From an uncultured Clostridia bacterium (lineage in GTDB: Bacteria > Bacillota > Clostridia > TANB77 > CAG-508), in the NCBI GenBank assembly GCA_963931445.1, contig OZ007016.1, positions 1,475,279-1,539,278 of the forward strand: a DNA stretch of 64,000 nucleotides, read 5' to 3'. Shown one piece after another: positions 5,997-64,000 of this stretch. The notes beneath the pieces were generated by a model. That model did no database searches. It saw nothing but the letters and a program-made list of their open reading frames with translations, and was not told where the DNA came from. The first letter of the stretch is position 1. Each line of letters opens with the position of its first letter. Position numbers and translations under genes: made by a program.

Positions 5997-8144
5997 TTAA
6001 TATTCTACAATTATATTTGTATTTTCATATACTTTTATACCATCTTTTGGTATTTGATTTGTTATTATTTTTTCTGAAACATCATCTTCATTAATATTTT
6101 CATACTTTATTCCTAATTTCATTTCTTTTAATTTCTCTTTTGCTTCTGAAATAGTCATACCTATTAAATTTGGAGTTTCTACTTCTGTTCTTATATCTTC
6201 TTGTTTAATATTATCTTCTTGTATTTCTAAATATGGAAGTACCTCTCCTAAAACTTGTGAACCTATTGGCGCCGCTACACCTCCTCCTTGGTGTCCCCCC
6301 TCACCTGTAGGATTATATAAAGTTATTAAAACAACTACTTGTGGATCTGATATTGGAGCTACTCCAATAAATGATGTTACATATTTTCCTGTATTAACAC
6401 CATCTTCTGATGTTCCAGTTTTTCCCCCTACTAAATACCCTTGAACTTGTGCATTTTTTCCTGTTCCTTCTGCCACAACTGTTCCCATCATACTCAAAAC
6501 ATCACTAGCAGTTTCTTTTGAAATTACATTTTTTATTTCTTCTATTGGTATTTCTCTAACCTCTCCAGTTTGACTATCTATAATTTCTTTTACAATACGA
6601 GGTTTAACATATGTACCATTATTTGCTATTGTGCTTACTGCAGTTATCATTTGCAAAGGTGTTATTTCAAATCTCTGACCGAAAGAAATAGTTGCAAGTT
6701 CAATAGGTCCTACTTTTTCTTCTTTTAAAAATATGCTACTTGCTTCTCCTGGAAGATCTATTCCTGTTTTTCTTAATAGACCAAATTTTTCAAGATAATC
6801 ATAATATTTACTAACACCTATTTGCTGTCCTAATCCTATAAATACAGGATTGCATGAATTCATAAGTGCTTGCCTTAAACTTTCTGGTCCATGAGGATTA
6901 TAGTATCTCCAACAACTAATTCTAACACCAGCAATTGTTATTCCCCCAGTACAACAAAACTCACCTTCTTTATCTGTTGTAGTTATTCCTTCTTCTAATG
7001 CAGCTGATGCTGTAATTAGCTTAAATGTTGAACCTGGTTCATAAGTATCTGCTACTGCTTTGTTTCTCCATACTTTTTGCATTTCTTTTATCTGTTCAGT
7101 TTCAGATAAATTATTCCAATTTGGTTTTAATTCATCAATTATTGTTTCATAAGGAGTATTTAAATTGTAATCTGGATAACCAGCCATTGCTAAAATATCT
7201 CCAGTTTTCGGATTCATTACTATTATATTTCCACCATCTGTACATTTATTGTCTATACATGCTTCTTTTAAATATTTTTCTGCTATTCCTTGTATTGTCG
7301 CGTCTATACTTAATACTAAACTATTTCCATCTATTGCTGAAATATATTCTTCTCCTTCACCTTCTATTTCTCCTCCATTTGCATCTGTCACTTTTGTTAT
7401 TTTTCCTTTTTCTCCTTGAAGTTCTTCTTCATAAATTGCTTCAATTCCATCTAATCCTTGATTATCATAGCCACAGAATCCAATTACTTGTGATGCTAAA
7501 CTGTTATATGGATAATATCTTTTAGTATCTTCATCAATATTTATTCCAATTTCTATATTATTATCGCTCATCCAAATTCTCAATTCATCAGATTTATTTT
7601 TTTCTACTCTTTTAGCTATTGTTTCAATTGAACTATTTTTACTTACTTTTTTTAAAACCTTTTCATATTCCAAATTAAAAATATTTGCTAGAGCTCTTGC
7701 AACTTTTTCTTTATTTTCTTTTGCTATATTATTTGGATTTACAGTTATTGTATTTACAGTACTACTTACTGCTAATATATTTTTACCAGTTGCATCATAT
7801 ATTGTTCCTCTTTTAGGGCTTATGGCTCTATCCATACTCTGCTGTATTAATGCCATTTGGCTTAATTTATCTCCATCAATAAATTGAATCCATGCTATTC
7901 TTATTACAAATAATAATGAACCTATAATTGAAAAAGTTAATAAAATTAATAATCTTTTTCTTCTACTTTTATCACTATTCTTTTTTTCTATTTTATTTTT
8001 TTCCTGCTTAATTTCTTTTTCATATTTTTTATTTTTTCTATTTTTTATTTTCTTTTTTATTTTTTCTAAAGTTTCTCCTTTTGCTTTTTTTTCATTTAAT
8101 AATATTTTTTGTCTTGGTGTCATCTTTTTCATATATTTTCTCAT
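5997..8144 (-). CDS. class B penicillin-binding protein (PBP2B/SpoVD family) with C-terminal PASTA domain
   Basis: N-terminal TM anchor, PBP dimerisation domain, transpeptidase motifs (STFK, SxN, KTGT) and a PASTA domain; sits between ftsL and murE. Confidence 0.85.
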   Translation of the reverse strand: MRKYMKKMTPRQKILLNEKKAKGETLEKIKKKIKNRKNKKYEKEIKQEKNKIEKKNSDKSRRKRLLILLTFSIIGSLLFVIRIAWIQFIDGDKLSQMALIQQSMDRAISPKRGTIYDATGKNILAVSSTVNTITVNPNNIAKENKEKVARALANIFNLEYEKVLKKVSKNSSIETIAKRVEKNKSDELRIWMSDNNIEIGINIDEDTKRYYPYNSLASQVIGFCGYDNQGLDGIEAIYEEELQGEKGKITKVTDANGGEIEGEGEEYISAIDGNSLVLSIDATIQGIAEKYLKEACIDNKCTDGGNIIVMNPKTGDILAMAGYPDYNLNTPYETIIDELKPNWNNLSETEQIKEMQKVWRNKAVADTYEPGSTFKLITASAALEEGITTTDKEGEFCCTGGITIAGVRISCWRYYNPHGPESLRQALMNSCNPVFIGLGQQIGVSKYYDYLEKFGLLRKTGIDLPGEASSIFLKEEKVGPIELATISFGQRFEITPLQMITAVSTIANNGTYVKPRIVKEIIDSQTGEVREIPIEEIKNVISKETASDVLSMMGTVVAEGTGKNAQVQGYLVGGKTGTSEDGVNTGKYVTSFIGVAPISDPQVVVLITLYNPTGEGGHQGGGVAAPIGSQVLGEVLPYLEIQEDNIKQEDIRTEVETPNLIGMTISEAKEKLKEMKLGIKYENINEDDVSEKIITNQIPKDGIKVYENTNIIVEY

Positions 8145-10807: not shown

Positions 10808-10975
10808 TGTGTTCTATTTTTCAAATTAACTTTTCTTATTGTATAGAAAAAATCGACTTTTTACTTAATATTTCAGTATCTTTAACGATTTTTTCTATAC
10901 AACAAGGTTAAGTTTCCTTAGGCTGTGCATATTCGCGAAGCGAAATGCACATGTGGCGAAGCCACTTTTCTTATT
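10808..10975 (+). repeat. Dispersed structured repeat element A, copy 1
   Basis: Shares GTGTTCTATTTTT..CTTATTGTATAGAAAAAATCGAC..CGATTTTTTCTATACAACAAGGTTA..GGCGAAGCC..CTTTTCTTATT with the copies at 22545, 30800 (tandem) and 61426. Confidence 0.8.
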
Positions 10976-11008
10976 CTTTTTGCTCTACCTTTCTATCAGC
11001 ATACAGTT

Positions 11009-12262
11009 CTACAAATACAAGCTGAGACGGAAGCCGATGCCGAAGTAACTGTCAGTCGCATTGTCGTAGTTACGGCTAGCTGTGTAAATGTTGCTGTCGT
11101 AGTAAAGGCCTCCTCTAAAAGTACAGGGGTTAGCAAAATTGCTGTAAGTGTAACTTGAATATTCTGTAGTCCATTCTGCTAAATTAGAAGCCATATCATT
11201 TATTTTACATACTTCATCTGCATTTGCTCCTGTATTTGCTAAACTACTATTTTTACTTTTTTGATTTGCATAATTTATATTTCCTGCTTCTTGTATATAC
11301 ACTATTGCTGTATCCCATGCATAACTATTTATTAAATCACTTTTTACACTTGTACTTTCTGCATAAGTATTTATTGCAACCTTTGATGCATCAAGCTGAG
11401 TTATATAGTTCCATAATGTTTTTGGATTATATGACATACTATCTTCTGAATAACCATTAGATTTTTTTGATGCTGCTTTATAATTTGCCGTACTGCTTCC
11501 ACTTGCATAACTTGCTTCATATCTTCCTATATAATATCCACCATTTGAATTCACACTATCTATAAATCCTTTTAAATCTTTGGCTGTTGCATTTTCTCCA
11601 TCTTTTCCACTACTTGCAACTCCTTGTCTATATTCTATAATTTCTTTATATCTTGAATTTATTACTACACTGTCTGATTGATCTGTATAATGTTCTGCAT
11701 ATTGTACTGGTTCTGGATTTCCAGATTCATCAAATGTATATCTTCCTAATTTTATTTCTGCACTTGGACTTCCATCATCTTTTGTAAATGTTCCTACTGG
11801 TATCCACACATATTGGCTTCCTTGCACATTTGCATCATTAGATGCATTCACATCTTCTATTACTATTCCTTGATGTACTGTATCTCCTGAATCTTCCGCT
11901 ATTTTAAATCCTGCTGGAACCATTACAGTATTATTCTTTTCATCTTTTATTGGAGTTTTTGATGTAAACACATAACTATTATTCTTTGCATCTGTTACTG
12001 TACTTGGTGGTGGTTCTGGCTCTTTTGTTTGCTCTGTTATATATGCATCTAAATTTGCCATTGTTTGGTCTTCTTTTACTTCTCCCTGCTCTGTTCTATC
12101 TTTTGCTTCTTTTGCCCATCCTACTAATCCATTATCTCCAAATGCTCCTCTTATTGCTATTGTTGCTAATATGATTAATATCACTATTGTTATTACTAAC
12201 GCAATTAAGGTTATTCCTCTTTCTTGTTTTAAGGCTTTTTGAAACTTTTTATTTTTACTCAT
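11009..12262 (-). CDS. type IV pilin-like protein (class III leader KQERG|ITLIALVITIVIL) fused to a C-terminal FGE-sulfatase (SUMF1-like) domain
   Basis: The N-terminal 22 aa are nearly identical to PilA at 42494. The C-terminus carries FGE-sulfatase motifs (NLAEWT, RGG, GIGFRL). The 3' part is noticeably GC-richer than the genome. Confidence 0.7.
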   Translation of the reverse strand: MSKNKKFQKALKQERGITLIALVITIVILIILATIAIRGAFGDNGLVGWAKEAKDRTEQGEVKEDQTMANLDAYITEQTKEPEPPPSTVTDAKNNSYVFTSKTPIKDEKNNTVMVPAGFKIAEDSGDTVHQGIVIEDVNASNDANVQGSQYVWIPVGTFTKDDGSPSAEIKLGRYTFDESGNPEPVQYAEHYTDQSDSVVINSRYKEIIEYRQGVASSGKDGENATAKDLKGFIDSVNSNGGYYIGRYEASYASGSSTANYKAASKKSNGYSEDSMSYNPKTLWNYITQLDASKVAINTYAESTSVKSDLINSYAWDTAIVYIQEAGNINYANQKSKNSSLANTGANADEVCKINDMASNLAEWTTEYSSYTYSNFANPCTFRGGLYYDSNIYTASRNYDNATDSYFGIGFRLSLYL

Positions 12263-12888: not shown

Positions 12889-13569
12889 TTAATCTATAGT
12901 TGTACTTGTTTTTCCTGTTCCTACTACATCCTCTTGTAGTGAACTCCATGTATTACACCCTACTATTCCATCTGCTGTAAGTCCTACCTTTCTTTGATAG
13001 TTTTTTACTGCTTCTTGTGTTGCTGAGCCAAATATTCCATCTAATCCTCCAGTTCTAAATCCTAATGTATTTAAATCATCTTGTGCTATTAAAACATAAT
13101 TACTCAAACTTCCTCTTTTTATTAATGGATATCCCCCTGTACTACATGCTGGCTTACCAAATCTTTTATCAAAATGGACCCATGTTGGTGTAAGTGATAT
13201 TGGTTCTACAAAACTCCATACTCCAGAATTTTTTGCAGAATTATATAATTTAACCCTTTGAGTTTGCGAAAGTATTTGACCTACATCAAATGCAGTACCT
13301 GCATAATGCTGACTTTGGTTTCCATGACCTCCTTCATAAGGTCTTTTAAATGCAAATCCTACAGGTATTGGCTGTCCATATATATATCTTTGGCTATTCC
13401 AACTTTGCATTGTTCTTTTTGTTGTCCATAATATATTACTTTTGCTAGATCCTCTAAATTCTTTCACTTTTAAAGTTCCGTTTGAATTATATGGCATAGG
13501 CTCATTTTCACCTCTATAATATGTTTCCATTCTATCAGTATCATTATTAAAAACTATTATTTTTGCCAC
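12889..13569 (-). CDS. cell-wall hydrolase: peptidase M15 (VanY/L-Ala-D-Glu endopeptidase-like) with C-terminal PG_binding_1 domain; GTG start
   Basis: M15 motifs SQHYAGTAFD and WVHFD. C-terminal LGF..G.DGIFG..T..AV..YQ is a peptidoglycan-binding domain. GGAGGAG RBS lies before GTG. Confidence 0.7.
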   Translation of the reverse strand: MAKIIVFNNDTDRMETYYRGENEPMPYNSNGTLKVKEFRGSSKSNILWTTKRTMQSWNSQRYIYGQPIPVGFAFKRPYEGGHGNQSQHYAGTAFDVGQILSQTQRVKLYNSAKNSGVWSFVEPISLTPTWVHFDKRFGKPACSTGGYPLIKRGSLSNYVLIAQDDLNTLGFRTGGLDGIFGSATQEAVKNYQRKVGLTADGIVGCNTWSSLQEDVVGTGKTSTTID

Positions 13570-13671: not shown

Positions 13672-14271
13672 ATGGAAAATAATTTCTATTCAGAAATAAA
13701 TTCAAAATATTGCTATGAAAATAGCAATGTTCTAGTTAATAAACTTAATATACATGATGAAAAGATTTTACAAAAATATGAAGCTAAAATAACTGCTGCT
13801 AAACTTTTATCTTTAAGACATAAAGGAATTATTGGTAATTTTGATGTTAAACATCTTAATTCAATACATTCTTATTTATTTGAAGATATATATTCATTTG
13901 CTGGAAAATTTAGAAATGAAAATATTGCTAAAGATAATTTTAGATTTGCAGAATATGAATATATAGAACAAGAACTTATTAAATTACTAAATAAGCTAAA
14001 AGAAGAAAATTATCTTTCTAATCTTTCTAAGGAAGATTTAGCACAAAAACTTGCTTACTATATGTCTGAATTAAATGTACTTCATCCATATAGAGAAGGT
14101 AATGGAAGAACTATTAGAGAATTTATTAGAGAATTAGCTTTAAAAAATAACTTTACATTAAATTTAAGTAATGTTTCACCTAAATTATTTTTAGAAGCAA
14201 GTAAAAAATCTATTGTAGACCCAGCTCCTTTAGCTAAATTAATATACACTTGCTTAGAAGAAAAAAGTTAA
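13672..14271 (+). CDS. fic: Fic-family AMPylator (HPYREGNGRTIRE motif) with no intrinsic inhibitory helix
   Basis: Canonical Fic motif HPxx(D/E)GNGR. No (S/T)xxxE(G/N) motif at either end, so it is class-I-like. Extended -10 TGTTATAAT lies upstream. Confidence 0.8.
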   Translation: MENNFYSEINSKYCYENSNVLVNKLNIHDEKILQKYEAKITAAKLLSLRHKGIIGNFDVKHLNSIHSYLFEDIYSFAGKFRNENIAKDNFRFAEYEYIEQELIKLLNKLKEENYLSNLSKEDLAQKLAYYMSELNVLHPYREGNGRTIREFIRELALKNNFTLNLSNVSPKLFLEASKKSIVDPAPLAKLIYTCLEEKS

Positions 14272-14816: not shown

Positions 14817-15575
14817 TTATACTTCTCTACATTTAACTACCAACCTTTGTGTTCCATAATTTGTGCAAGTTATTAATGTTACTTCTTTCCTTCCGTTTGT
14901 AAGTTGACTTGTACATCTTGTATCTGTTGGATTTACTATGTATTTATTGTAAACTTCATATTCTAATGTTCTTCCTGTCATATCTTGTAATTGTATTTTA
15001 TCTCCATTTTCTAATTCACTTAATCTTCCAAACATTTTTCCATTTCTATAATTATGTCCTACAATACAATAATTTCCTACTTCATTTGGTTTTACATTTG
15101 GTTTTAATTTATCTGCTTCTGGCCAATACCTGTTAACTGAAATTTCAAGTAACTCATCAGAAGTTTCAGATAATACTGGATATGTTATTCCTATCTTTGG
15201 TATAGTAATAATTGCTTCTGTTGTATATGTAACTCCACCTATTGTTGTATTACTAGATATTTCATTATTTGTAGAACTTATCTCTTGAGTTTCTTGTATT
15301 TGAGTTTGCTGTACTTCTCTTTCACTTAATACAACTATTATTACATCATCTTCTTCTGCTTGCTTAATTGTATCATCATTTTCTATTTTTACTTCTGATA
15401 ATAATTGTTTTGAAACTTCCTCGCTTTTATTTCTATCATACTCTGCATATATATAATATGAGGATAATAAACATACTAAAAGAACTGATATAAAAAATTG
15501 GATTTTATACAGTTTCTTTTTTCTTTTTAGTTCTGGAGTAACATATAGCTTTTCAGTAACTAAAATTTGATTCAA
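14817..15575 (-). CDS. sortase-family transpeptidase
   Basis: N-terminal TM, catalytic His (VGHNYRNG), the TLITC signature and a downstream Arg. Confidence 0.8.
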   Translation of the reverse strand: MNQILVTEKLYVTPELKRKKKLYKIQFFISVLLVCLLSSYYIYAEYDRNKSEEVSKQLLSEVKIENDDTIKQAEEDDVIIVVLSEREVQQTQIQETQEISSTNNEISSNTTIGGVTYTTEAIITIPKIGITYPVLSETSDELLEISVNRYWPEADKLKPNVKPNEVGNYCIVGHNYRNGKMFGRLSELENGDKIQLQDMTGRTLEYEVYNKYIVNPTDTRCTSQLTNGRKEVTLITCTNYGTQRLVVKCREV

Positions 15576-24146: not shown

Positions 24147-24229
24147 ACATTTTTATTTTTATAGTAATATACTATCATAGTTTAAGAATGCATTACAAAT
24201 TATTAGTAGTAAAAGAAAGGAGTTTTTTA

Positions 24230-24400
24230 TTCTTAAGCGCCTGGACATATTATTATGTATGTTGACGAGGTAGAGATTTATCGAATTTTTCGGCGGATGA
24301 TCTCTTGGCATTTAATTACTGCCATAAATATTAGTTAAAGGCTTGTAGTAATGCAAGTATACAAAGCTAATAGGGTAATGTTTTATTTGTATTGTTTTCT
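24230..24400 (+). ncRNA. glmS ribozyme (GlcN6P-dependent) in the glmS 5' UTR
   Basis: AGCGCCTGGAC...GTTGACGAGGTAGAG.TTATCGAATTTTTCGGCGGATG matches the glmS ribozyme core. Confidence 0.8.
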
Positions 24401-28139: not shown

Positions 28140-28375
28140 AATAAAGCATTGATAAAAGATTAGTAATAAAACCAATTTTATTTAGAGAGGCTATGGTTGG
28201 TGAAAATAGCATAAAAAGTTTTATGAATCTACTTTTAGAGCTTCTTATGAAAATAAGACCGAGTAATGCTAGGTTACAAGCATTTTAAAGTTGTCAATTA
28301 ATTTTGAATAATTAAGGTGGTACCGCGACTATTTCGCCCTTATGCTTTTTTGCATATGGGATTTTTATTTTATTA
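28140..28375 (+). promoter_or_regulatory. T-box riboswitch leader of serS
   Basis: AATTAAGGTGGTACCGCG T-box sequence at 28310-28327, followed by a terminator/antiterminator and a T-run. Confidence 0.75.
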
Positions 28376-30770: not shown

Positions 30771-30808
30771 AAATGGTGTCCTTATGTCAAGGACACCATT
30801 TTTTTATT
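30771..30808 (+). terminator. Rho-independent terminator
   Basis: AAAAATGGTGTCCTTATGTCAAGGACACCATTTTTTT. Confidence 0.85.
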
Positions 30809-31150
30809 GTATAGGAAAAATCGACTTTTTATTTAAAATTTCAGTATTTTTAATGATTTTTGCTATACAACAAGGTTAGGCATCCTTAGACTGTCCGAGC
30901 GAAGCGAGTGACATGTATTTCGCACTTGCTTCAGAGGAATACTTGGCGAAATGCCTTTCTTATTGTATAGCAAAAATCGACTTTTTATTTAAAATTTCAG
31001 TATTTTTAATGATTTTTGCTATACAACAAGGTTAGGCATCCTTAGACTGTCCGAGCGAAGCGAGTGACATGTATTTCGCACTTGCTTCAGAGGAATACTT
31101 GGCGAAATGCCTTTCTTATTGTATAGCAAAAATCGACTTTTTTCGTGATA
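30800..31150 (+). repeat. Repeat element A, tandem array of two full 156-bp units plus a partial third
   Basis: The units abut head to tail (…CTTTCTTATTGTATAGCAAAAATCGAC…) with no spacer. Confidence 0.85.
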
Positions 31151-31230
31151 TTTTAGTACGCTTATCTATTCTTGCTATATAAAAATGTTTAATTTTCTTA
31201 AATAATCTTTACTGTATTTTAGTATTTTAA

Positions 31231-36493: not shown

Positions 36494-37861
36494 TTACATG
36501 GTTATATCTATACCTAAATCTACTGATTCAAATATCCATCCACCCATGTATAATTGTATACATGGTACAATTATTACTATTACTAAGAATATTAAAAATA
36601 CACCTACTATAGAATATACAACTTGTGGTAATACTGCCATAACTTTTTGTATTAAATTATTAATATCCATTTCCATATATTCAACTAATTTTTTCATCAT
36701 TTCAATTAAATCTGTTTGCATTCCTATTTTTAACATTTCAGTCTGCATTGATGAAGATAAGCCAGAATTTTCAAATGGTTCAATCCAAGATGCACCAATT
36801 AATATATTATTAATTGCAGTTTCAATAATTGATAACATAACATAATTCTTTACTACTGCTTTGCTTACATCTAAGGCTTCTTGAATTCTCATTCCATTTT
36901 CCAAATTTAGTAACATTGCTCTCATGAATCTTGAAAAATCCATAGAATATATCAATTTACCAAATATAGGCATTTTATATTTAAAATAATCAAAATCATA
37001 TCTTCCTTTTGGTGTTTTAATATATACTATTACACCTCCTATAACTGATGAGAATATAATCACAGGTATATACCATACATTTATTAATCCATTACAAAAA
37101 TCTACAAACCATAATGTTATTTCTGGAAGTGTTTGAGTGGTTCCTGATTGTGCGAATGCTTCTTGAATTAATGGTATAATATATGCTACACCGAATATTA
37201 GTAATCCTATGATTGCTAATAATTGCAATACATTAGGAATAATTATTTTCTTTAGTCTTGAACTAGTGTTATCTACATCTTCTAAATATTTTACAGCTTG
37301 TTCTAAAGATTTTTCAAGAGAACCAGACATTTCTCCAACTCTTATCATATTAATATATATATATGGAAATATATTAGAATAATATTCCATTGTTGTATAC
37401 ATATATTCTCCAGATTCAACACCTGCCAATATATCTTGTAATACACCTCTTAATGATAAATTATCTGTACTTTCTATAATTGTACTTAATGCATGTATAT
37501 TGTTAAAGTTTGCTTTCTTAAGTAAATAAAAATTTTGAGTAAATATAATAATATCTCTTGCTGTTATTTTTTCTTCTCTTGCCAAAGCAATATTTATTCT
37601 CTCTTTTAAAGTTGGTTTAGCTTTTAATCTTCCTTGCATTATATTGGCTGAATTTGCTTGTTTCATTATATCATCTATGTCTAGTATATTTCTTCTATTA
37701 GCTTTTGCTTTTTTGCTTTTATAACCAACCTGTGTAATACTTATTGGCATTAATCCGTTATTTTTTAATTTCTTTATAAGGTTATTTCTATTTACATCTT
37801 CGACTTTATTTCTTACTACTTGTCCTTTTGATGTTATTGCTCTATAAATATATTCAGGCAT
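36494..37861 (-). CDS. pilC: type IV pilus platform protein PilC (two GspF domains)
   Basis: Two T2SSF repeats with three TM segments. Confidence 0.85.
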   Translation of the reverse strand: MPEYIYRAITSKGQVVRNKVEDVNRNNLIKKLKNNGLMPISITQVGYKSKKAKANRRNILDIDDIMKQANSANIMQGRLKAKPTLKERINIALAREEKITARDIIIFTQNFYLLKKANFNNIHALSTIIESTDNLSLRGVLQDILAGVESGEYMYTTMEYYSNIFPYIYINMIRVGEMSGSLEKSLEQAVKYLEDVDNTSSRLKKIIIPNVLQLLAIIGLLIFGVAYIIPLIQEAFAQSGTTQTLPEITLWFVDFCNGLINVWYIPVIIFSSVIGGVIVYIKTPKGRYDFDYFKYKMPIFGKLIYSMDFSRFMRAMLLNLENGMRIQEALDVSKAVVKNYVMLSIIETAINNILIGASWIEPFENSGLSSSMQTEMLKIGMQTDLIEMMKKLVEYMEMDINNLIQKVMAVLPQVVYSIVGVFLIFLVIVIIVPCIQLYMGGWIFESVDLGIDITM

Positions 37862-37893
37862 TTTTCCTCCTTTCCAATAAAATTTTAATAATT

Positions 37894-39012
37894 TTATTGC
37901 TGTATTCTATTTGTTTTTTCTTTATTTATTTTTAATTGCATTATAGTTCTATTTAAAATTTCTATATTTTTTTCCTCTATTTGTGCCTTTGCTTGTTCTA
38001 ATGTTATTACATCATTCACAAAAAGCTCTGCTATTGAATTAATTAATCCTATACTTCCTTTTTCTGAATTACTTTGTATAGCATCTTCTATTTCAGATAC
38101 ACTAATTTTTTCTTTTCTAATTATTCCAGATACTATGTTATCTACTACCATTACTTCAGGAACTAAAACAAGTTGGTCATTTTTTCCAAGTAATAATCTT
38201 TGAGAAATTACTAATTTTAAAAGTGAAGAAATTAAATACTTAACTGTTTGTTGATCTCTTATTTCATAAAAATTTACCATTCTGTCTATTGTTTCTGCAC
38301 ATGATTTTGTATGAAGTGTACCTATTACTAAATGTCCTGCCTCTGCTGTTTCAATTGCCGCTTCCATTGTTTCTCTATCTCTAATTTCACCAATTACTAA
38401 TATATCGCAGTCTTCTCTTAAACAATTTTTTACGCCATCACTATAATTTAAACAATCTCTACCGGCGCCAATTTCTTTTTGCACTACAATTGACTTTTTA
38501 CTTTTATGTTTATATTCAACAGGACTTTCTAATGTAAGTATTTTTTTATTTTGATTTTCATTTATTTCATTTATAAGAGCATTTAAAGTAGTAGTTTTAC
38601 CTGAATTTGTCTTACCTGTGACTAATATTAAACCTTGTGGTTGATATGTCATTCTCCTTACTATATCTGGTACACCTAAGTCTTGATATTTTGGTAATTC
38701 GCTTTTTATTAATCTTAATGTAAATATTGGTACATCATCTGCTAGTGAAATATTTACCCTTAATCGTATATCTTCATACTCAAAAGAAGTATCTAATCTT
38801 TTAGTTTCTTTAAATACTTTATCTTTATCTAAATTTCCTCTTACAAAATAATCATATATGTCATACATATCATCTACTGTAAGAACTGAAGGAGTTTCAA
38901 ATTCAATTAATTGTCTTCTTATTCTAAGCATTGGCTTTAAGTTACATATTAAATGAATATCAGATGCATCCTTTTTTTTTGCAACTTTTAAAATTTCATC
39001 AATGTCTATCAT
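37894..39012 (-). CDS. pilT: PilT-like retraction ATPase
   Basis: About 370 aa GspE-family ATPase lacking the N1 domain; Walker A GKTNSGKTTT. Confidence 0.8.
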   Translation of the reverse strand: MIDIDEILKVAKKKDASDIHLICNLKPMLRIRRQLIEFETPSVLTVDDMYDIYDYFVRGNLDKDKVFKETKRLDTSFEYEDIRLRVNISLADDVPIFTLRLIKSELPKYQDLGVPDIVRRMTYQPQGLILVTGKTNSGKTTTLNALINEINENQNKKILTLESPVEYKHKSKKSIVVQKEIGAGRDCLNYSDGVKNCLREDCDILVIGEIRDRETMEAAIETAEAGHLVIGTLHTKSCAETIDRMVNFYEIRDQQTVKYLISSLLKLVISQRLLLGKNDQLVLVPEVMVVDNIVSGIIRKEKISVSEIEDAIQSNSEKGSIGLINSIAELFVNDVITLEQAKAQIEEKNIEILNRTIMQLKINKEKTNRIQQ

Positions 39013-39029
39013 TGGTTACCTCCTAAATA

Positions 39030-40655
39030 TTAATATATAGCTAATTTATTATTTAGTTCTTGCATATTTGTTATTCCATCTAACATTTTATATATTCCAT
39101 CTACAATTAATGGAACATATCCTGATTCTAATGCACTATTTCTTATTTCTATTGCAGATTTATTATCTACAATTAATGTTCTTAATTCATCATTTAAAAT
39201 AAGTATTTCAAATATACCTATTCTTCCAAGATAACCAGTATTATTACACTTTTTACAGCCAACTGCATCAAATGTTTTTTTGCCATTTAAATCAAACTTT
39301 ATTCCATATTTATCACCAATTTTATTTATAATTTCTATTTCCTCTTTAGTATATTCTCTTTCTTTTAAACAATATGGGCAAAGTTTTCTTACAAGTCTTT
39401 GTGATACAGATGTTGCTAAAGTACTAGATATATCATAATTTGAAATTCCCATTTTTCTAAGTCTAGTTATAACTTCTATTGCATCTATAGTGTGTATTGT
39501 AGATAATACATAATGTCCTGTTTGTCCTGCTTGCATAGCAATTTCTGCTGTTTCTTTATCTCTTATTTCTCCCACTAGTATTATGTCTGGATCTTGTCTT
39601 AAGACTGTTCTTAAAGAACTTGCAAATGTTATTTTTGGATCAACTTCAATTTGATTTAATCCATTAATTCTTATTTCAACAGGATCCTCTATTGTTGTAA
39701 TATTTATTTCTGGTCTATTTAAATAATCTATAATACTATATAATGTTGTAGTTTTTCCTTCTCCTGTTGGTGCTGCAATAACTGTTATACTATTCTTTTT
39801 GTTAAATGCTTTTTTTACTAATTCTTCGTCCTTTGGAAACCCTAAATCAAATATTGATTTTACATCTTCATTTTTCTTTAATAATCTTAAAACAAATTTT
39901 TCTCCATATATATTTTTTTGTGAAGAAACACGAATATTATATTCTGGATACATAACAATTCTTCCATCTTGTGCTTCTTGCTTTTCTTGATGCATATTTG
40001 ATATAGCTTTTAGTCTACCTATAATTTGAGTTTGTTTTTCTTTTCCTATATTTGCTACATCTATTAAAACACCATCAATTCTATATCTTATTCTCATACC
40101 TTCTTGCATAGGTTCAATATGAATATCACTTGCTCTTTTTTCCATAGCTGATTTTATTACACTATCTATAAAACCAGATACATCTGCATTTACATCTATA
40201 TTTTCTGGATTAGGTGAAAAAGAGTTTAATATTGCATCAATATTTGTTTCAAATGTAATGTATTTTTCCATTATTAAACCTTTATTTAAAAGTAACAATC
40301 TAACGGTTTCAATAGCTCTTCTATTAGATGTATCTGCAAAGCATACTTTTATTTTACCAGCATTTTCTTCAAAAGGTATTGCTTTATATTGTTTAGCAAT
40401 ATCTATAGATATATAATCTAACATATTAATCCTTAAATCTGCTTCTCTTAAGTAAATAGCTTTTTCGTCTAAGATTTCTCCAATTGCATTTATTAATATA
40501 TATGGATCACATAATCTTAAAATATTTAATATATCTCCTATTTTTTTCTTTGGTTCAGCTTTTTGATATTCTAACGCTTTTTCTATATCTGCTTCAGATA
40601 CAATTCCTTTTTTTACCAATTCTATTCCTAATGGTTGTCTTTTTTTAGAATCCAT
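39030..40655 (-). CDS. pilB: type IV pilus assembly ATPase PilB
   Basis: GSPII_E N-domain, Walker A APTGEGKTTT and a C-terminal tetracysteine zinc site. Confidence 0.85.
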   Translation of the reverse strand: MDSKKRQPLGIELVKKGIVSEADIEKALEYQKAEPKKKIGDILNILRLCDPYILINAIGEILDEKAIYLREADLRINMLDYISIDIAKQYKAIPFEENAGKIKVCFADTSNRRAIETVRLLLLNKGLIMEKYITFETNIDAILNSFSPNPENIDVNADVSGFIDSVIKSAMEKRASDIHIEPMQEGMRIRYRIDGVLIDVANIGKEKQTQIIGRLKAISNMHQEKQEAQDGRIVMYPEYNIRVSSQKNIYGEKFVLRLLKKNEDVKSIFDLGFPKDEELVKKAFNKKNSITVIAAPTGEGKTTTLYSIIDYLNRPEINITTIEDPVEIRINGLNQIEVDPKITFASSLRTVLRQDPDIILVGEIRDKETAEIAMQAGQTGHYVLSTIHTIDAIEVITRLRKMGISNYDISSTLATSVSQRLVRKLCPYCLKEREYTKEEIEIINKIGDKYGIKFDLNGKKTFDAVGCKKCNNTGYLGRIGIFEILILNDELRTLIVDNKSAIEIRNSALESGYVPLIVDGIYKMLDGITNMQELNNKLAIY

Positions 40656-40686
40656 AGACTTCTCCTTTCATTTGTTAATAATATTA

Positions 40687-41133
40687 TTACCAATATCTTA
40701 ATGTAAATTCAATTTCTTTTTCCATATAATTATTAGAATCTTTTCCAATCTTCATATAAACACTAATAATATTTTTTGTTATAGAATTTACATTATATGT
40801 TTTTGATTGAAATTTACATTCCAATATATTTCCTGCTATTTTAACATCATTCCTATAAATTGAAACACCCTGAAATTTATATGTTGGTCCTTCCTCAAAT
40901 ATAATAGTATTATCAGTAACTGTAGCTGAATTATAATTTTTGACATCTGTAGCAAAAAACATAGTAAATTTATTAAATTCTGCAAGATATCTAGGAGTAT
41001 TATTTAATTCATTTATGTTATCATAAAATGTTGTAGCAACTGTAGTCATAACACTCATTACAATAGTTAAAATTACCATGTATATAGTAAGTGATACTAA
41101 TGTAATGCCTTTTTGACTATTTACATCATACAT
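40687..41133 (-). CDS. minor pilin/pseudopilin-like protein
   Basis: Class III leader QKG|ITLVSLTIYMVIL. Confidence 0.6.
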   Translation of the reverse strand: MYDVNSQKGITLVSLTIYMVILTIVMSVMTTVATTFYDNINELNNTPRYLAEFNKFTMFFATDVKNYNSATVTDNTIIFEEGPTYKFQGVSIYRNDVKIAGNILECKFQSKTYNVNSITKNIISVYMKIGKDSNNYMEKEIEFTLRYW

Positions 41134-41153
41134 TTTTAATACTCCTTTCTTGA

Positions 41154-41564
41154 TTATATTTCTTTAATTTTTAATCTTTGTACATTAAATTCTTCTGTAT
41201 CGCCTTTAAAAGTATAAGATATTTTTAAATTTACAATTTTAATTATATCTTTTAAATTTTCTCCGTAATTTTCAAATTCCAATGAAACTTTAAAACCATT
41301 TGGTATTGAATACTTATTAATATAATATTGACCAGTTTTAGTTTGAGCATCCTCATAAGAAATTTTGTCTATATCTTCTAATATTTGTACTGCATACACT
41401 GTCATTTGTGAATTCAATTTAGTTTTAATATTATTTTTATATATTGCTGTCATTAGCATTATAACTGAACCTACAAATACAAAAATAATAACACTTGCAA
41501 CTATTATATCTTGCATTGTAAATCCTTTTTCTTCTTTTAACTTTAATTTAATATTTTTCATCAT
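41154..41564 (-). CDS. minor pilin/pseudopilin-like protein
   Basis: Leader EKG|FTMQD followed by a hydrophobic helix. Confidence 0.55.
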   Translation of the reverse strand: MMKNIKLKLKEEKGFTMQDIIVASVIIFVFVGSVIMLMTAIYKNNIKTKLNSQMTVYAVQILEDIDKISYEDAQTKTGQYYINKYSIPNGFKVSLEFENYGENLKDIIKIVNLKISYTFKGDTEEFNVQRLKIKEI

Positions 41565-41573
41565 ACCACCTAT

Positions 41574-42389
41574 TTACTTATAGAATATTGCAAAATTAGT
41601 TATTATTAAAATAATTATATTAGAAACGCACATATAAAATCCTATAGGAATTTTTGCTGAATCTATTTTTATCTTTTTTACTATTTTGCTTTTTTTAATA
41701 TGTAATTTATAAATTAATAATTGAATTGAAATTGCAAGTAATGTAACTATAATTGTATAAATACATACTAACTCATAAGTATATAAAACTATTAACATGC
41801 ATAATATTAAAATGTCGATTGTATAACTATCCTTTCCTTTTTTTCTTAAATACGTTACAGAAAATAATAATAAAATACATGATAATATTAAATAAATAAC
41901 ATATCTATAAATACTAGTGTCATTTTCTACTATGTATAGATATATCATATATATTGCAACACAAATAAAGCCAAATAGTAAAACTGGCTTTTCTATTTTA
42001 ATTTTTTCTTTATCAATTCCTCCTATAATAAATAAAGTTGATATATATAATAATCCTATAATTAAATATGTTAATAACTGCCCATTTATAGTAAGTAAAC
42101 TTGTTTTAATTGAAAGAGCAAATAATACAAAAACGACTCCTGATAATATTTCAAGTAAAATATATCTTGGTCTTATTTTTTCTTTACAATATCTACATTT
42201 TCCTCCTAAAAAAGTATAACTTAATATTGGTATCATATCTAAAAATGATAACCTATGATTACACTTTGGGCAATAAGAACGAGTATGAAGTATATCTTGT
42301 TTTATTGGAATTCTATATACTGCAAGTGAAAAAAAACTTCCAAAAAGTGTTCCTATAAAGAATATTAACATATATAGTATGTAATCCAT
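41574..42389 (-). CDS. pilD: prepilin peptidase (A24 family)
   Basis: N-terminal CPKC..C..C zinc-binding domain and the polytopic A24 core. Confidence 0.85.
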   Translation of the reverse strand: MDYILYMLIFFIGTLFGSFFSLAVYRIPIKQDILHTRSYCPKCNHRLSFLDMIPILSYTFLGGKCRYCKEKIRPRYILLEILSGVVFVLFALSIKTSLLTINGQLLTYLIIGLLYISTLFIIGGIDKEKIKIEKPVLLFGFICVAIYMIYLYIVENDTSIYRYVIYLILSCILLLFSVTYLRKKGKDSYTIDILILCMLIVLYTYELVCIYTIIVTLLAISIQLLIYKLHIKKSKIVKKIKIDSAKIPIGFYMCVSNIIILIITNFAIFYK

Positions 42390-42493
42390 ATTTTCTCCTT
42401 AATTTTAAAATAGAGATTATACTTAAAATATAATTATATATTTTAAATTATATTAAGTGTATAATCTCATATTTAATAAAATAATTTTAAATC

Positions 42494-42733
42494 TTATTCT
42501 GTTACACTTGGAATTGTACCATTTGCTACAAGATCTTCCATGTATTTTATAGCATCATTTACCATTATTGCTGAATTTTCTGAATCTTGTTGTCCAACTT
42601 CTTTTGCTTTTTCAGCATATGGCATTAATCCACCATTAAAAGCAAATGAAATTGCTACTGTTGCTAATATTATTAGTATAACTATTGTTATTACTAATGC
42701 AACTAAAGTAATACCTTTTTGATTTCTTAACAT
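42494..42733 (-). CDS. pilA: major type IV pilin (short, 79 aa)
   Basis: Leader MLRNQKG|ITLVALVITIVILIILATVAI. Confidence 0.75.
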   Translation of the reverse strand: MLRNQKGITLVALVITIVILIILATVAISFAFNGGLMPYAEKAKEVGQQDSENSAIMVNDAIKYMEDLVANGTIPSVTE

Positions 42734-42808
42734 TTAAAATTCCTCCTTTATTTTTTTGTATATATCTATATAAAATAAATATAACCTAAGTTTATTATGA
42801 ATTAAGTT

Positions 42809-43216
42809 TTACTTAATTCCTTCATCATTAAAAAATGTTTCTGTTGAATTTTTATCTACTGTTTCCGAATTGTTATTTGCATTTGTATTATTTTCATTTT
42901 CTATATTACTATTATTTTCACTAGATAATGCAAATGGATTTGCTTTACCTTCTGAATAACTTCCACTTTGTTTGTATATATTTAAATCAGAATCTGTAAC
43001 TTCATAAGTTACTTCAATTTTTTCTGATTCAGTTATTTCTTCTTCTATTTCATTTTTTACTTCATCAGGTGTAATATATGCTTCTTTCTCTGGTATAACT
43101 TTATTTATAGGAATATAGTCATAAAATAATATTCCTAATATTAATATTATTGCTATACTCAAGAGTAATATTATGACAATTTCCTTTATTACAGATTTTA
43201 TCATATTTTCCTCCAT
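42809..43216 (-). CDS. hypothetical membrane-anchored protein in the pilus operon
   Basis: Single N-terminal TM and an acidic, Asn-rich C-terminus. Confidence 0.4.
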   Translation of the reverse strand: MEENMIKSVIKEIVIILLLSIAIILILGILFYDYIPINKVIPEKEAYITPDEVKNEIEEEITESEKIEVTYEVTDSDLNIYKQSGSYSEGKANPFALSSENNSNIENENNTNANNNSETVDKNSTETFFNDEGIK

Positions 43217-43222
43217 TTCTAT

Positions 43223-43885
43223 TTATTGAGTAACTTCATTTGTTGTATTTTCTGATACATTATTTTCAGTTTCTTCATTTGTCTGCTTAACTTCTTCTGT
43301 GGTATTTTCTAATTTTATTTTTATATCTGTAACATTAAATGTTGCTTTTAAATTTTCTCCATCAGGTGTTAATATAAAATCATTTACTCTAAAATTAAGT
43401 TCACTATCTTCTTCTATTGCTGATATAAATTCAATAATTCCTACATATTTTCCAACCACTGTAAAATTTAAATCTTTTGTTATTTTATCACCTGCTGTTC
43501 CTTCTTTAATGTCTAGTTTTAGATTAACTCCTTCTTTTCTTGCATGTCTACCTATTTTTACCCATAAATATTCTATATTGTACATTTCTTCTGTATTTGC
43601 TTTATTTATTTCATTTTCTGTACTTATATTTGCTAATTTATAATAACTTTCTTTATTTGTCAATAATAATTCAACATTTTGATTTAATTCTGACTTTTTT
43701 GATTGTAAGTCACTTTTTATTTTTTTGTTAGTTTCATTTATTTTATTTGTTAAATCATTATTTAATTCTATAATTTGAGATACGCCTAATACTTGAAATG
43801 TACTTATTGATAATCCTTGAAACATAGCAAAATATGCCAAAACAATTAATAATATTAGTAATATTAAAATCAAAAATTTTCTCAT
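43223..43885 (-). CDS. pilO: PilO-like pilus assembly protein
   Basis: N-terminal TM, coiled coil, and position after pilMN. Confidence 0.55.
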   Translation of the reverse strand: MRKFLILILLILLIVLAYFAMFQGLSISTFQVLGVSQIIELNNDLTNKINETNKKIKSDLQSKKSELNQNVELLLTNKESYYKLANISTENEINKANTEEMYNIEYLWVKIGRHARKEGVNLKLDIKEGTAGDKITKDLNFTVVGKYVGIIEFISAIEEDSELNFRVNDFILTPDGENLKATFNVTDIKIKLENTTEEVKQTNEETENNVSENTTNEVTQ

Positions 43886-45498
43886 GGCATATCCCCCTCT
43901 ATTACAATCTTAACAAACTCTTCTTGTTTTTCTCCTTGTGTTGAAACTACATTTTTTAAAATTCCATCTTCTTTAAGTTTTGCTTTAAAATATCCAAGTT
44001 CATCATAATATTTTGATTGTGCATTTATTACTATATGTTTATTATTATTAGCTGATGTATTCTCAATTTCTGTTATTTGAACTTGTTGAGGTATTACAGC
44101 CATTATTCTTATTAATAAGTTAGGAATAGAGCCCTTCATATTTAAATTATCTTCTACTTTATCATTAATATCTCTAAGATTGTTTTCCATGTCTTTATAT
44201 TTACTTGCCTTTTGTTTCGTAGCATTTATATCATTGTCAACTAATTGTATTTGATTATCTGTATATTGTGCTACATCTTCTGCATCTGATATTTTATAAT
44301 TTATTTGTTTATTTATATAAATAGAAAATAATGAATACAGAATTGTAAGTATTAATACTCCTGATGTCATTCTTAATAACCATTTTTCCGTATTATCAAG
44401 TTTTCCTTTTAAGCTAAAATCAATATTATGACTCTTTTTTTCTTTTTTAGTAAGACTCATATCTAATTTAAGCCATTCTGGTAATTGATCTGCAAAGCTT
44501 GTTTTTTTAAAATTCATATTTTTTATTCCATACCCTAAGCCTTGCATTGCAATAGCTATAGCAGAATTTACTTCGATATAATCTTTAATGTTTATTTTTA
44601 AATTTTCTGTTACAAAATATGGTTTTAATATTTCACATTTTTCATTGGTAAAAAATTCTTGAAAATATAAGTCTATATTGTTAACCACTGACATAGTTCC
44701 AGTTATATAAATTTTTTCATATTTAATAGTTGAATTTGCAATATATTCTTGTATATTTGTAACTATTTTGTATAAGGTTGGCATTATATAATTTAAGTTT
44801 TCATTTTCTTCTTCTTGAAGTTCTTTTCCTTCCATTGTATATATTGTGGATTCTTTACAAATTTCATATGCTTTTAAATATGAATTCTCTTTACTTGCTA
44901 TTTGACTTAATATTTCTTCAGATCCAAATTCCAATTTTTGAATATCATACACCTTTTGATTTATAATACTAGTAATCGTTGTTTGGCCTTCAATATTAAC
45001 TATTAATATATTTTCTTTTGGTTTTATAGAAGCAACATTTGATATGCTTGTACCAATTGGAGTAATTGTTGATAGTTTATAATTTACCATTGATTGTGTT
45101 GTTTTTGAAATTGAAGATTTATCTGATGAAATATGAATTATTTTTACTTTATCTTTATCATTAATTTCATTAGATATAGCATATCTTGTTTCAAAAGCAT
45201 TTTTGTTAATTTTTTTATCATAACAATATGATTCAAATTCTGTGTCAATTGCTTTTTTTAAATCGTTTTTATTTAGTAGACTAAACATATAAAAATAATT
45301 ATATGCTTCTTCTGCTAAATTAACACTAATTGGTATATTGTAACTAAAAGTTTCAGATACTATTTGTTCAAGTGCCTCTCCTATTTTTTCATAAAATTTA
45401 ACTCCAAAAGCTTCTACTTTTAAAATTTCTCTTTCCTTAGTTACTTTTGCATATTTAATTACATTTTTTTCTATATACAATCCTAAACAACTTGACAT
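43882..45498 (-). CDS. pilM: PilM (actin-like ATPase) fused to a PilN-like TM/coiled-coil region
   Basis: N-terminal PilM/FtsA-like fold followed by TM and coiled coil. The fusion is as seen in Gram-positive T4P loci. Confidence 0.65.
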   Translation of the reverse strand: MSSCLGLYIEKNVIKYAKVTKEREILKVEAFGVKFYEKIGEALEQIVSETFSYNIPISVNLAEEAYNYFYMFSLLNKNDLKKAIDTEFESYCYDKKINKNAFETRYAISNEINDKDKVKIIHISSDKSSISKTTQSMVNYKLSTITPIGTSISNVASIKPKENILIVNIEGQTTITSIINQKVYDIQKLEFGSEEILSQIASKENSYLKAYEICKESTIYTMEGKELQEEENENLNYIMPTLYKIVTNIQEYIANSTIKYEKIYITGTMSVVNNIDLYFQEFFTNEKCEILKPYFVTENLKINIKDYIEVNSAIAIAMQGLGYGIKNMNFKKTSFADQLPEWLKLDMSLTKKEKKSHNIDFSLKGKLDNTEKWLLRMTSGVLILTILYSLFSIYINKQINYKISDAEDVAQYTDNQIQLVDNDINATKQKASKYKDMENNLRDINDKVEDNLNMKGSIPNLLIRIMAVIPQQVQITEIENTSANNNKHIVINAQSKYYDELGYFKAKLKEDGILKNVVSTQGEKQEEFVKIVIEGDMP

Positions 45499-61425: not shown

Positions 61426-61582
61426 CAGGTGTTCTATTTTTTAAATTAACTTTTCTTATTGTATAGAAAAAATCGACTTTTTACTTAATATTTCAGTATC
61501 TTTAACGATTTTTGCTATACAACAAGGTTAAGTTTCCTTGGGCCGAGCGTATTTGCGAAGCAAAACGCTCATGTGGCGAAGC
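61426..61582 (+). repeat. Repeat element A, copy 5, truncated at its 3' end by the IS insertion
   Basis: Identical to copy 1 through ..CATGTGGCGAAGC, then IS sequence (TGTAAATGTCAAG) instead of CACTTTTCTTATT. Confidence 0.75.
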
Positions 61583-61684
61583 TGTAAATGTCAAGTGAAA
61601 AATGTACTTTTTTTCCAGTTTCAAAAATGTACGAAAATTCCAGTTTTAAATATATACTTAGAGGGGAAAATCCCCTCTAAAATT

Positions 61685-61867
61685 TTAGAAAAAATTTTCT
61701 TCTCTATAATCCTTTTCTAGCATAACATCTTTTTTATTACAATGATATGCTAAATAATGTAATTCATTTATAATTTCTTCTTTTGTAAGTTTTCGTCCTA
61801 ATTCTGTTATTCTATCTATTGCTACATCTACATATATTATCATTTCTCTCACTGTCATCTTATACAC
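61685..61867 (-). CDS. small ORF downstream of istB inside the IS
   Basis: ORF only. Confidence 0.2.
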   Translation of the reverse strand: MYKMTVREMIIYVDVAIDRITELGRKLTKEEIINELHYLAYHCNKKDVMLEKDYREENFF

Positions 61868-62630
61868 CTTCCTTTTCTATATTTCTTTGCATCTCCACAT
61901 TTCTATCTTTTATTCTATATGATTGTCCTTTAATTTTTATTATGTGACTGTGGTGCACTAATCTATCTATTATTGCTGCTGTCACTACGGAATCTCCAAA
62001 TATATCTGACCACTTGCTAAATACCTGATTTGTTGTTAATATTGTTGACTTCTTTTCATATCTTTTATTTATTAATTGAAAAAACAAATATGCTCCTTCT
62101 TTCGTTATCGGTAAATACCCTATTTCATCAATTATCAGCAATTTATATTTACAAAAATATTTTATTTTTATATCTGCTCTATTTTCAGAATTAGCTTGTA
62201 CTAATTGATTTATTAAATCATTAAAAGTTATGTAATATGTGCTAATCCTTCGTTTCGCTGCTGCCATTCCAATTCCAACCGCTAAATGTGTTTTTCCAAC
62301 TCCACTTGTTCCTACAAATATTATATTTTCACTCTTCTCCATAAATCTTAATGTTTCTAAATCATAAAGTTCAGTTTTATCTACACTAGGCTGATAACTA
62401 AAATCAAAATCATCTAATGTCTTTTCAAATGGAAATGCAGACACTTTTATATTTACTTTTGCAGCTCTTTCAGTTTGATATTTAATTTCTTCTTTTGTTA
62501 AATCATACAACATTTCTGTAAATGAAATATTTTTGTCTTTCATCTCATCTAAATATCCAGGTAACATATTTTTTATATTATCTAATTTTAAAATTTCTAA
62601 ATTATCTATTAAATCTGTATACATACTCAT
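61860..62630 (-). CDS. istB: IS21-family helper ATPase IstB
   Basis: Walker A GTSGVGKTHLA and the DnaC-like AAA+ fold. Confidence 0.9.
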   Translation of the reverse strand: MSMYTDLIDNLEILKLDNIKNMLPGYLDEMKDKNISFTEMLYDLTKEEIKYQTERAAKVNIKVSAFPFEKTLDDFDFSYQPSVDKTELYDLETLRFMEKSENIIFVGTSGVGKTHLAVGIGMAAAKRRISTYYITFNDLINQLVQANSENRADIKIKYFCKYKLLIIDEIGYLPITKEGAYLFFQLINKRYEKKSTILTTNQVFSKWSDIFGDSVVTAAIIDRLVHHSHIIKIKGQSYRIKDRNVEMQRNIEKEGV

Positions 62631-62642
62631 ATTTCTTTCCTC

Positions 62643-63854: not shown

Positions 63855-64000
63855 AATATCACCTTTCCTTTCTATTGAGACAATTAGCATCATTTACATA
63901 TACTAATTGATGTACTTATATTTTACCAATTCTTACCTATTAAGGCAAAAGAAAAAATGTAGGTTTTCCTACATTTTTATGTTGGAAAAAAACTACATTT

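Follow-up and report, generated by a model that had tools for sequence, protein, structure and literature searches.

A probable target of a diversity-generating retroelement with a pilin-like leader and a C-type-lectin domain in an uncultured Clostridia bacterium

What kind of protein begins like the major type IV pilin of its own genome and ends in a domain reminiscent of the formylglycine-generating enzymes (FGEs), and why is the 3' end of its gene so rich in GC? The question is raised by an open reading frame (ORF) on the minus strand, at positions 11009-12262, of a 64,000-nt stretch of the genome of an uncultured Clostridia bacterium (contig OZ007016.1; hereafter, the window). This ORF is present in the ORF list, starts behind a good Shine-Dalgarno sequence (ribosome-binding site AGGAG), and encodes a protein of 417 amino acids identical to the database protein P0001, for which the search of the protein database found exact matches on seven contigs, the longest being 1,596,459 bp. 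The initial annotation, made from the letters alone, described it as a pilin leader fused to an FGE-sulfatase domain, and proposed either an adhesin or an enzyme. The analysis reported here indicates, with a probability of roughly 0.8, that the gene is a target of a diversity-generating retroelement (DGR), in which a pilin-like leader and helix and a Pro/Glu-rich spacer are followed by an FGE-type C-type-lectin domain that ends in a variable region (VR), and that the product is likely to be a hypervariable adhesin, which may be displayed on the pilus.

The evidence that carries this conclusion lies at the very end of the coding sequence. The segment at 11020-11159 (minus strand; residues 369-414 of 417) aligns to a 140-nt template repeat (TR) at positions 14831-14970 of locus L005, which contains 58 adenines, has 20 AAY codons among its 46, and aligns to every VR. 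Between the VR of the window and the TR, 21 of the 28 nucleotide differences fall at TR adenines; at the protein level, the VR departs from the peptide encoded by the TR at 15 residues, every one of them at an asparagine (AAY) codon of the TR. Over seven VRs, template adenines account for 164 of the 204 substitutions, and the variable positions include 50 of the 58 adenines, versus 19 of the 82 other nucleotides (Fisher p = 6e-14). An independent metagenome-assembled genome (MAG), represented by locus L016, provides a further example, in which the TR downstream of the reverse transcriptase (RT) and the adjacent VR differ at adenines in 25 of 25 cases. This pattern is the defining signature of a DGR. 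The VR is C-terminal on a C-type-lectin scaffold, the fold of which matches those of TaqVP, TvpA and Mtd, and the FGE-type C-type-lectin (FGE-sulfatase/CLec1) is the most common and largest category of DGR targets, exemplified by TvpA (PMC5758913). By calculation, the 20 AAY codons alone would allow approximately 15^20 (3e23) peptide variants.

The same relationship bears on the base composition of the gene. The initial annotation had assigned about 45% GC to its 3' third, and the enrichment is real, but that third has 34% GC, and the value of 45.7% holds only for the last 140 nt (11020-11159), with 40.7% in the 108 nt downstream, 31% in the rest of the gene, and 25.6% in the window. The GC-rich patch is present because the template is rich in A and its adenines have been replaced, and targeting by a DGR, which the initial annotation had missed, thus explains both the anomaly in composition and the fold.

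A search of the window recovered no TR, no RT (YxDD motif), and no paralog of the gene. The RT and the targets share the 1,596,459-bp contig, on which the RT belongs to a cassette with the order MutS-like (MSL) gene, Avd, RT, and the 140-nt TR. The paralog P0014 (L005) lies 2-3 kb upstream of this cassette, which is made up of a MutS domain-I ORF, a bAvd protein, and an RVT_1 RT. The MutS_I ORF is small, of the MSL type, and located upstream of Avd, while Avd (bAvd, PF22296, 1.9e-19) overlaps the start of the RT, which matches RVT_1 at 2.8e-16 and carries the motifs LAIGNYTSQ and YLDD, in agreement with the [I/L]GxxxSQ and YxDD patterns of DGR-type RTs, and the TR starts 146 nt after the annotated stop codon of the RT. 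In related strains, the order target, MSL, Avd, RT is uninterrupted. MSL accessory genes are characteristic of Architecture D, and remote targets have been described in Treponema, up to a maximum of seven (PMC5758913). A scan of species-representative genomes for the TR pattern with intact adenines gave 0 matches. By the established DGR mechanism, the RT would copy the TR RNA into complementary DNA (cDNA), misincorporating nucleotides opposite adenines, and the cDNA would then replace the VR (mutagenic retrohoming); here, one cassette would serve, in trans, at least seven targets that share the TR, one of which adjoins the cassette.

These targets are at least seven dispersed single-gene paralogs, including the gene of the window, set among housekeeping genes. 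The protein family comprised more than 7,500 matches among those listed, with at least seven members on the 1,596,459-bp (1.6-Mb) contig, where the records place all seven targets together with the RT. When three of the paralog loci were aligned, the upstream coding DNA was nearly identical, the approximately 120 nt at the 3' end varied at scattered sites, and some 60-90 nt of non-coding DNA beyond the stop codon were again nearly identical. A second target is found at the right edge of the window, where positions 64000-54069 are identical (100% over 9.9 kb) to L004:11317-21248, which places the stop codon of the paralog P0009 69 nt past the right end of the window, and makes 63932-64000 (minus strand) the downstream flank of that gene. 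The 80 related loci that were compared come from gut Clostridia MAGs of human, mouse, rabbit and other animals, some three dozen in number; several of these MAGs carry 7-9 copies, and the RT is present in the flank at only three of the 80 loci, a distribution that fits one cassette-linked target and many remote ones. A phage receptor-binding protein was rejected as a reading of the gene, given that each target gene stands alone among housekeeping genes, and that targets remote from the cassette are typical of DGRs outside phages (PMC5758913).

The globular domain of the protein (residues 86-417; 11012-12007, minus strand) has an FGE-type C-type-lectin fold. The architecture proposed by the initial annotation, that is, a type IV pilin-like leader and helix, a linker, and an FGE-type fold, proved to be right, and the C-terminal motifs (NLAEWT, RGG and GFRL) do belong to the FGE-sulfatase/C-type-lectin fold. 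A first AlphaFold model, based on 38 close homologs, was unusable (pLDDT 48), and was replaced by a model of residues 86-417 based on 144 diverse representatives from an exhaustive search (pLDDT 98.1, pTM 0.95). The comparison of this model by Foldseek placed Mtd, PorK and TvpA first, and the FGEs after them, while the alignment of the family profile with CarF, PorK and SUMF2 is confined to the framework DMxxNxxEWT...RGG...GFR. The 15 substituted residues of the VR would be expected to lie together on a single solvent-exposed face, as in Mtd and TvpA. The globular domain forms 1,694 clusters at 50% identity. In the 6,477-aa protein P0369, 20 stretches match the region that corresponds to residues ~110-365 of the 417-aa protein, so the domain is present in giant proteins too, in long tandem arrays.

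The kinship with the FGEs underlies the proposal that the pilin displays an FGE-like metal-dependent oxidase or some other enzyme. The structural similarity of the model extends not only to the FGEs, but also to EgtB, OvoA and PvdO, and weak matches to PF03781 occur in the relatives: in 21 of the 38 close homologs at E<=0.1, one of which, P0002, is above the gathering score, at 25.3 bits versus a cut-off of 23.3; and in five of the six same-genome paralogs, at E values of 1e-4 to 0.04 (the paralogs have 14-22.5 bits or no match). The matches in the close homologs and paralogs span the last ~90 residues, that is, positions 151-253 of the 255 in the profile. The domain search of the 417-aa protein itself, however, returned no score for PF03781, even at E<=1. 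The stretch between RGG and GFR, which is the site of the catalytic, copper-binding cysteine pair of the FGEs (C336 and C341 of the human enzyme), corresponds here to residues 384-412 (GGLYYDSNIYTASRNYDNATDSYFGIGFR), where no cysteine is found, the sequence is hypervariable, and the TR encodes mostly asparagine; the only cysteines conserved in the 38-sequence alignment are C352 and C380. As the nearest structures are also non-enzymatic DGR variable proteins, an enzymatic role was rejected as highly improbable, and of the two options offered by the initial annotation, that of a ligand-binding protein or adhesin is the better one. The 417-aa protein is most likely a hypervariable ligand-binding adhesin.

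The other end of the protein raises the question of how such an adhesin would reach the cell surface. A short, basic leader, MSKNKKFQKALKQERG (12215-12262, minus strand), ends in the glycine (-1) of a class III (prepilin-type) signal, and is followed by a hydrophobic, pilin-like alpha1-N segment of ~20 residues, ITLIALVITIVILIILATIAI (12152-12214, minus strand), which together reproduce the layout of this class of signal; G16 (Gly -1), T18 (Thr +2) and L19 (Leu +3) are invariant in the 38-sequence alignment. Residues 38-85 (12008-12151, minus strand) form a helical stalk, the helices of which were seen in the first, low-confidence model, and the Pro/Glu-rich linker. The initial annotation had pointed to the likeness between this N-terminus (KQERG followed by ITLIALVITIVILIILATIAI) and that of the 79-aa major pilin at 42494-42733, minus strand (MLRNQKG followed by ITLVALVITIVILIILATVAI), and this is borne out by an identity of 59% over 49 amino acids (tblastn), and of 83% over 80 nt at the DNA level (12153-12232 versus 42651-42730). 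The profile matches in the PDB at the leader and helix are the N-termini of geopilin, PilA and MshA (E 0.004-0.14), and the single-sequence and shallow-profile searches of the PDB sequences recovered pilin N-termini only.

The machinery that would process and assemble such a protein is presumably that encoded by the type IV pilus locus at 36494-45498 on the minus strand, which is well supported by Pfam matches to the A24_N domain of prepilin peptidases (9e-30), to the ATPase family T2SSE in two genes, to T2SSF (the platform protein), and, on the pilin, to N_methyl. The locus contains PilC-like (36494-37861), PilT-like (37894-39012) and PilB-like (39030-40655) genes, two pilin-like ORFs (40687-41133 and 41154-41564), a prepilin peptidase-like gene (41574-42389; A24_N_bact), the major pilin gene (42494-42733; N_methyl at 22.3 bits, which passes the cut-off of 21.2), an unassigned 135-aa ORF (42809-43216), and two putative assembly ORFs (43223-43885 and 43882-45498), all on the minus strand; its PilM/N/O-like ORFs had no match in Pfam. 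The protein encoded at 41574-42389 carries a GGID motif. The major pilin has a mature form of 72 amino acids, and its nearest sequence matches in the PDB are the N-terminal domains of Geobacter-type geopilins. Since the 417-aa protein shares its leader and first helix with the major pilin of the same organism, and by analogy with PilB of Streptococcus sanguinis (PMC8179133), it may be a modular minor pilin, which the prepilin peptidase would cleave and the type IV pilus machinery would present.

Several points weigh against this last step. The peptidase at 41574, to which the initial annotation had assigned the processing of the protein, has a strong A24_N domain, but its A24 catalytic domain was not detected by any profile. 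The N_methyl profile (PF07963) reaches only 15.5 bits on the 417-aa protein, below the threshold of 21.2, the residue at +5 is alanine rather than the canonical glutamate, and none of the 80 related loci has a member of the family within 6 kb of pilus genes. It is conceivable, then, that the pilin-like N-terminus of the DGR target serves as a signal anchor, or as the stem of a short pseudopilus, and that the lectin is held at the cell surface and never enters an extended type IV pilus. The lack of linkage to pilus genes and the departures from the canonical signal speak for this arrangement, which we consider rather unlikely, given that the DNA of the leader and helix differs very little from that of the major pilin, and that the major pilin likewise has alanine at +5. 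The leader, with its invariant residues, is conserved across the family, being kept in 81 of 143 representatives, with alanine at +5 in 66 of the 81, and S. sanguinis offers an established case of modular pilins onto which adhesive modules are grafted (PMC8179133). In the MAG of Clostridium sp. 28_17, two adjacent genes (L072:4342-5991 and 6031-7119) encode proteins of 549 and 362 amino acids, each with a pilin-like leader and an FGE/CLec-like C-terminus, so the combination of pilin leader and lectin occurs in more than one subfamily.

Whether the copy in the window is still being diversified is uncertain. Seven differences between its VR and the resident TR are found at non-A positions, all of them T/C transitions, most of which are common to the paralogs P0006 and P0029, and this VR was therefore not rewritten from the present TR, unless the lineage makes non-A changes; non-A substitutions and 3-bp indels are in fact reported as frequent in the non-phage DGR lineages with remote targets (PMC5758913). 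A single VR allele was found on all seven contigs that carry the 417-aa protein, with no sign of ongoing variation. A second RT might have explained the non-A haplotype 58C/97C/109C/112T/133T, but only one RT was found on the 1.6-Mb contig among the 120 best matches, and the TRs of the related strains, at 67-76% identity, are too divergent to account for it. The frame of the RT is broken by one nucleotide after residue ~283, which gives a product of 297 amino acids that lacks ~50 C-terminal residues, and an insertion sequence (IS) interrupts the cassette. All of this tells against continued diversification, and, together with the IS insertions right after the VRs of two paralogs, it is compatible with a fossil target, in which the DGR is inactive on this copy, or altogether, and the VR is a frozen record that evolves as an ordinary paralog. 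This reading has to be taken seriously, yet is the less probable one, since P0009 and P0014 each depart from the TR at a single non-A position, which points to recent rewriting within the same genome. In addition, the tail of the RT beyond the broken frame is conserved in divergent lineages and may still be translated, and the 3' end of the window copy, which resembles an initiation of mutagenic homing (IMH) site, and the downstream element are both intact.

The frame break in the RT, within L005:14620-14800, reads …GAC AAA CGG AAA AAG… versus …GAT AGA GGA AAA AGA… in intact genes. The missing tail (KYLCGHYGYIKYA; motif KYLCGH[FY]GYIKYA) is open and conserved in the +1 frame, as it is in L091, L092 and L016, and it is also kept in an RT of 87% identity from short-read assemblies; among 120 RT clusters, the length is 297 amino acids in 40, and 335 in 57. 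Programmed +1 frameshifting, slippage at the rare CGG codon, or an impaired RT are all possible.

Insertion sequences of two types accompany the system. Elements of the IS256 type (Transposase_mut) are located at L005:11337-12569 and L006:11386-12618, with a solo end, GAGACTGTCAT, at about position 11265 of L007; in three of the seven target genes, such an element or solo end is found within ~10-30 nt of the stop codon, which suggests an insertion preference for a conserved element downstream of the VR. An IS21-like element occupies positions 61583-64000 of the window, with an rve ORF (62643-63893) and an IstB ORF (61860-62630), directly downstream of P0009, and is 100% identical to the copy beside the TR (L005:15073-17490).

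The homology between the VR and the TR ends at the GC-rich sequence GGCTTCCGYCTCAGCT, and the ~60 nt that follow are conserved among the paralogs, ending in a hairpin of 5 bp. In the window, this non-coding stretch after the stop codon (10948-11008, minus strand) is nearly identical to those of the paralogs, and its hairpin, GTGGC-TTC-GCCAC, was located at 10953-10965 by the alignment of the paralogs and the folding of the DNA. It is a candidate cis element for the recognition of the target; in some paralogs, the hairpin is degenerate or missing, and a dispersed repeat adjoins it. This intergenic repeat, which is ~110-160 nt long and contains a perfect hairpin of 21 bp (TTGTATAGAAAAAATCG…CGATTTTTTCTATACAA), occurs in the window at 10832-10987, at 30800-31200 (three tandem copies), and at 61452-61607, as well as in L003, L004, L005 and L007, and has no family in Rfam. 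The 21-bp stem downstream of the gene was considered as a DGR element, and was rejected because the repeat also occurs away from the targets.

Immediately next to the gene lie those for a PG_binding_1 protein that also has a weak Peptidase_M15-like region (12889-13569, minus strand), the gene of which is divided into two ORFs in one assembly (L001), a Fic-domain protein (13672-14271, plus strand), and a sortase (14817-15575, minus strand). Elsewhere in the window, Rfam recognizes a glmS ribozyme (24225-24382, plus strand; 90 bits) and a T-box leader (28140-28344, plus strand; 99 bits).

The DGR itself is a known system of hypermutation, and what sets the locus apart is the unusual, pilin-type module that carries the variable domain, which has been little described. 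TvpA, for instance, is a lipoprotein, whereas a type IV pilin-like leader and helix are found here. The TvpA of Treponema denticola (PDB 2Y3C) has ~15% sequence identity to the 417-aa protein, and the Treponema cassette has an HRDC accessory gene in place of the MSL and Avd genes found here (Architecture D of PMC5758913). Neither TaqVP of Thermus aquaticus (PDB 5VF4) nor Mtd of the Bordetella phage BPP-1 (PDB 1YU0), a phage-encoded trimeric protein of the tail-fibre tip, has a pilin-type N-terminus. The FGEs (SUMF1/FGE, PF03781) share the fold class and the framework motifs DMxGNxxEWT, RGG and GFR, and differ in their catalytic cysteine pair, which is absent here, in their Pfam score, which is below the threshold here, and in the active-site region, which is here hypervariable instead.

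In S. sanguinis, the pilin PilC carries a lectin module. The modular type IV pilins of this species, such as PilB with its vWA module, likewise combine a pilin N-terminal module with a bulky adhesive or lectin module (PMC8179133), but their genes belong to the pilus locus, their class III signals are canonical, and they are not subject to hypermutation, whereas the genes described here are dispersed, encode putative pilus components that lack Glu5, and have a module diversified by a DGR. Another parallel is that of the DGR type V pilus adhesins of Bacteroides (bioRxiv 10.1101/2024.11.15.621889), in which a DGR also diversifies an adhesive component of the pilus of a gut bacterium, although the pilus is a different one (type V, of the diderm Bacteroidota). 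The text of that study does not contain the terms "Type IV", "Firmicutes" or "Clostridia", that of Roux et al. does not contain "pilus" or "pili", and the literature searched included no paper on DGR targets with type IV pilin leaders.

The anchor of this target is the leader and helix of the organism's own type IV pilin, which would give a large family of targets a concrete means of being exported and displayed, with the 1,694 clusters and, in several MAGs, the seven or more copies per genome described above. The DGRs are abundant in gut bacteria, and the roles of most of their cellular targets are unknown. On a broader and decidedly tentative view, gut Clostridia with small genomes would carry at least seven dispersed modular type IV pilins, the lectin heads of which would be continually re-randomized in trans by a single MSL-Avd-RT retroelement, giving each cell lineage a shifting, pilus-borne repertoire of binding specificities, as a type IV counterpart of the type V DGR adhesins of Bacteroides, with the RT possibly throttled by a conserved +1 frameshift site. 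For annotation, a brief rise in GC content at the 3' end of an FGE-like gene, where the genome is otherwise rich in AT, is a practical flag for a DGR target, even where the RT is located elsewhere. If the pilus-borne role is true, hypermutation would be linked to type IV pilus adhesion in the uncultured Clostridia, in parallel with the finding for the type V pilus of Bacteroides.
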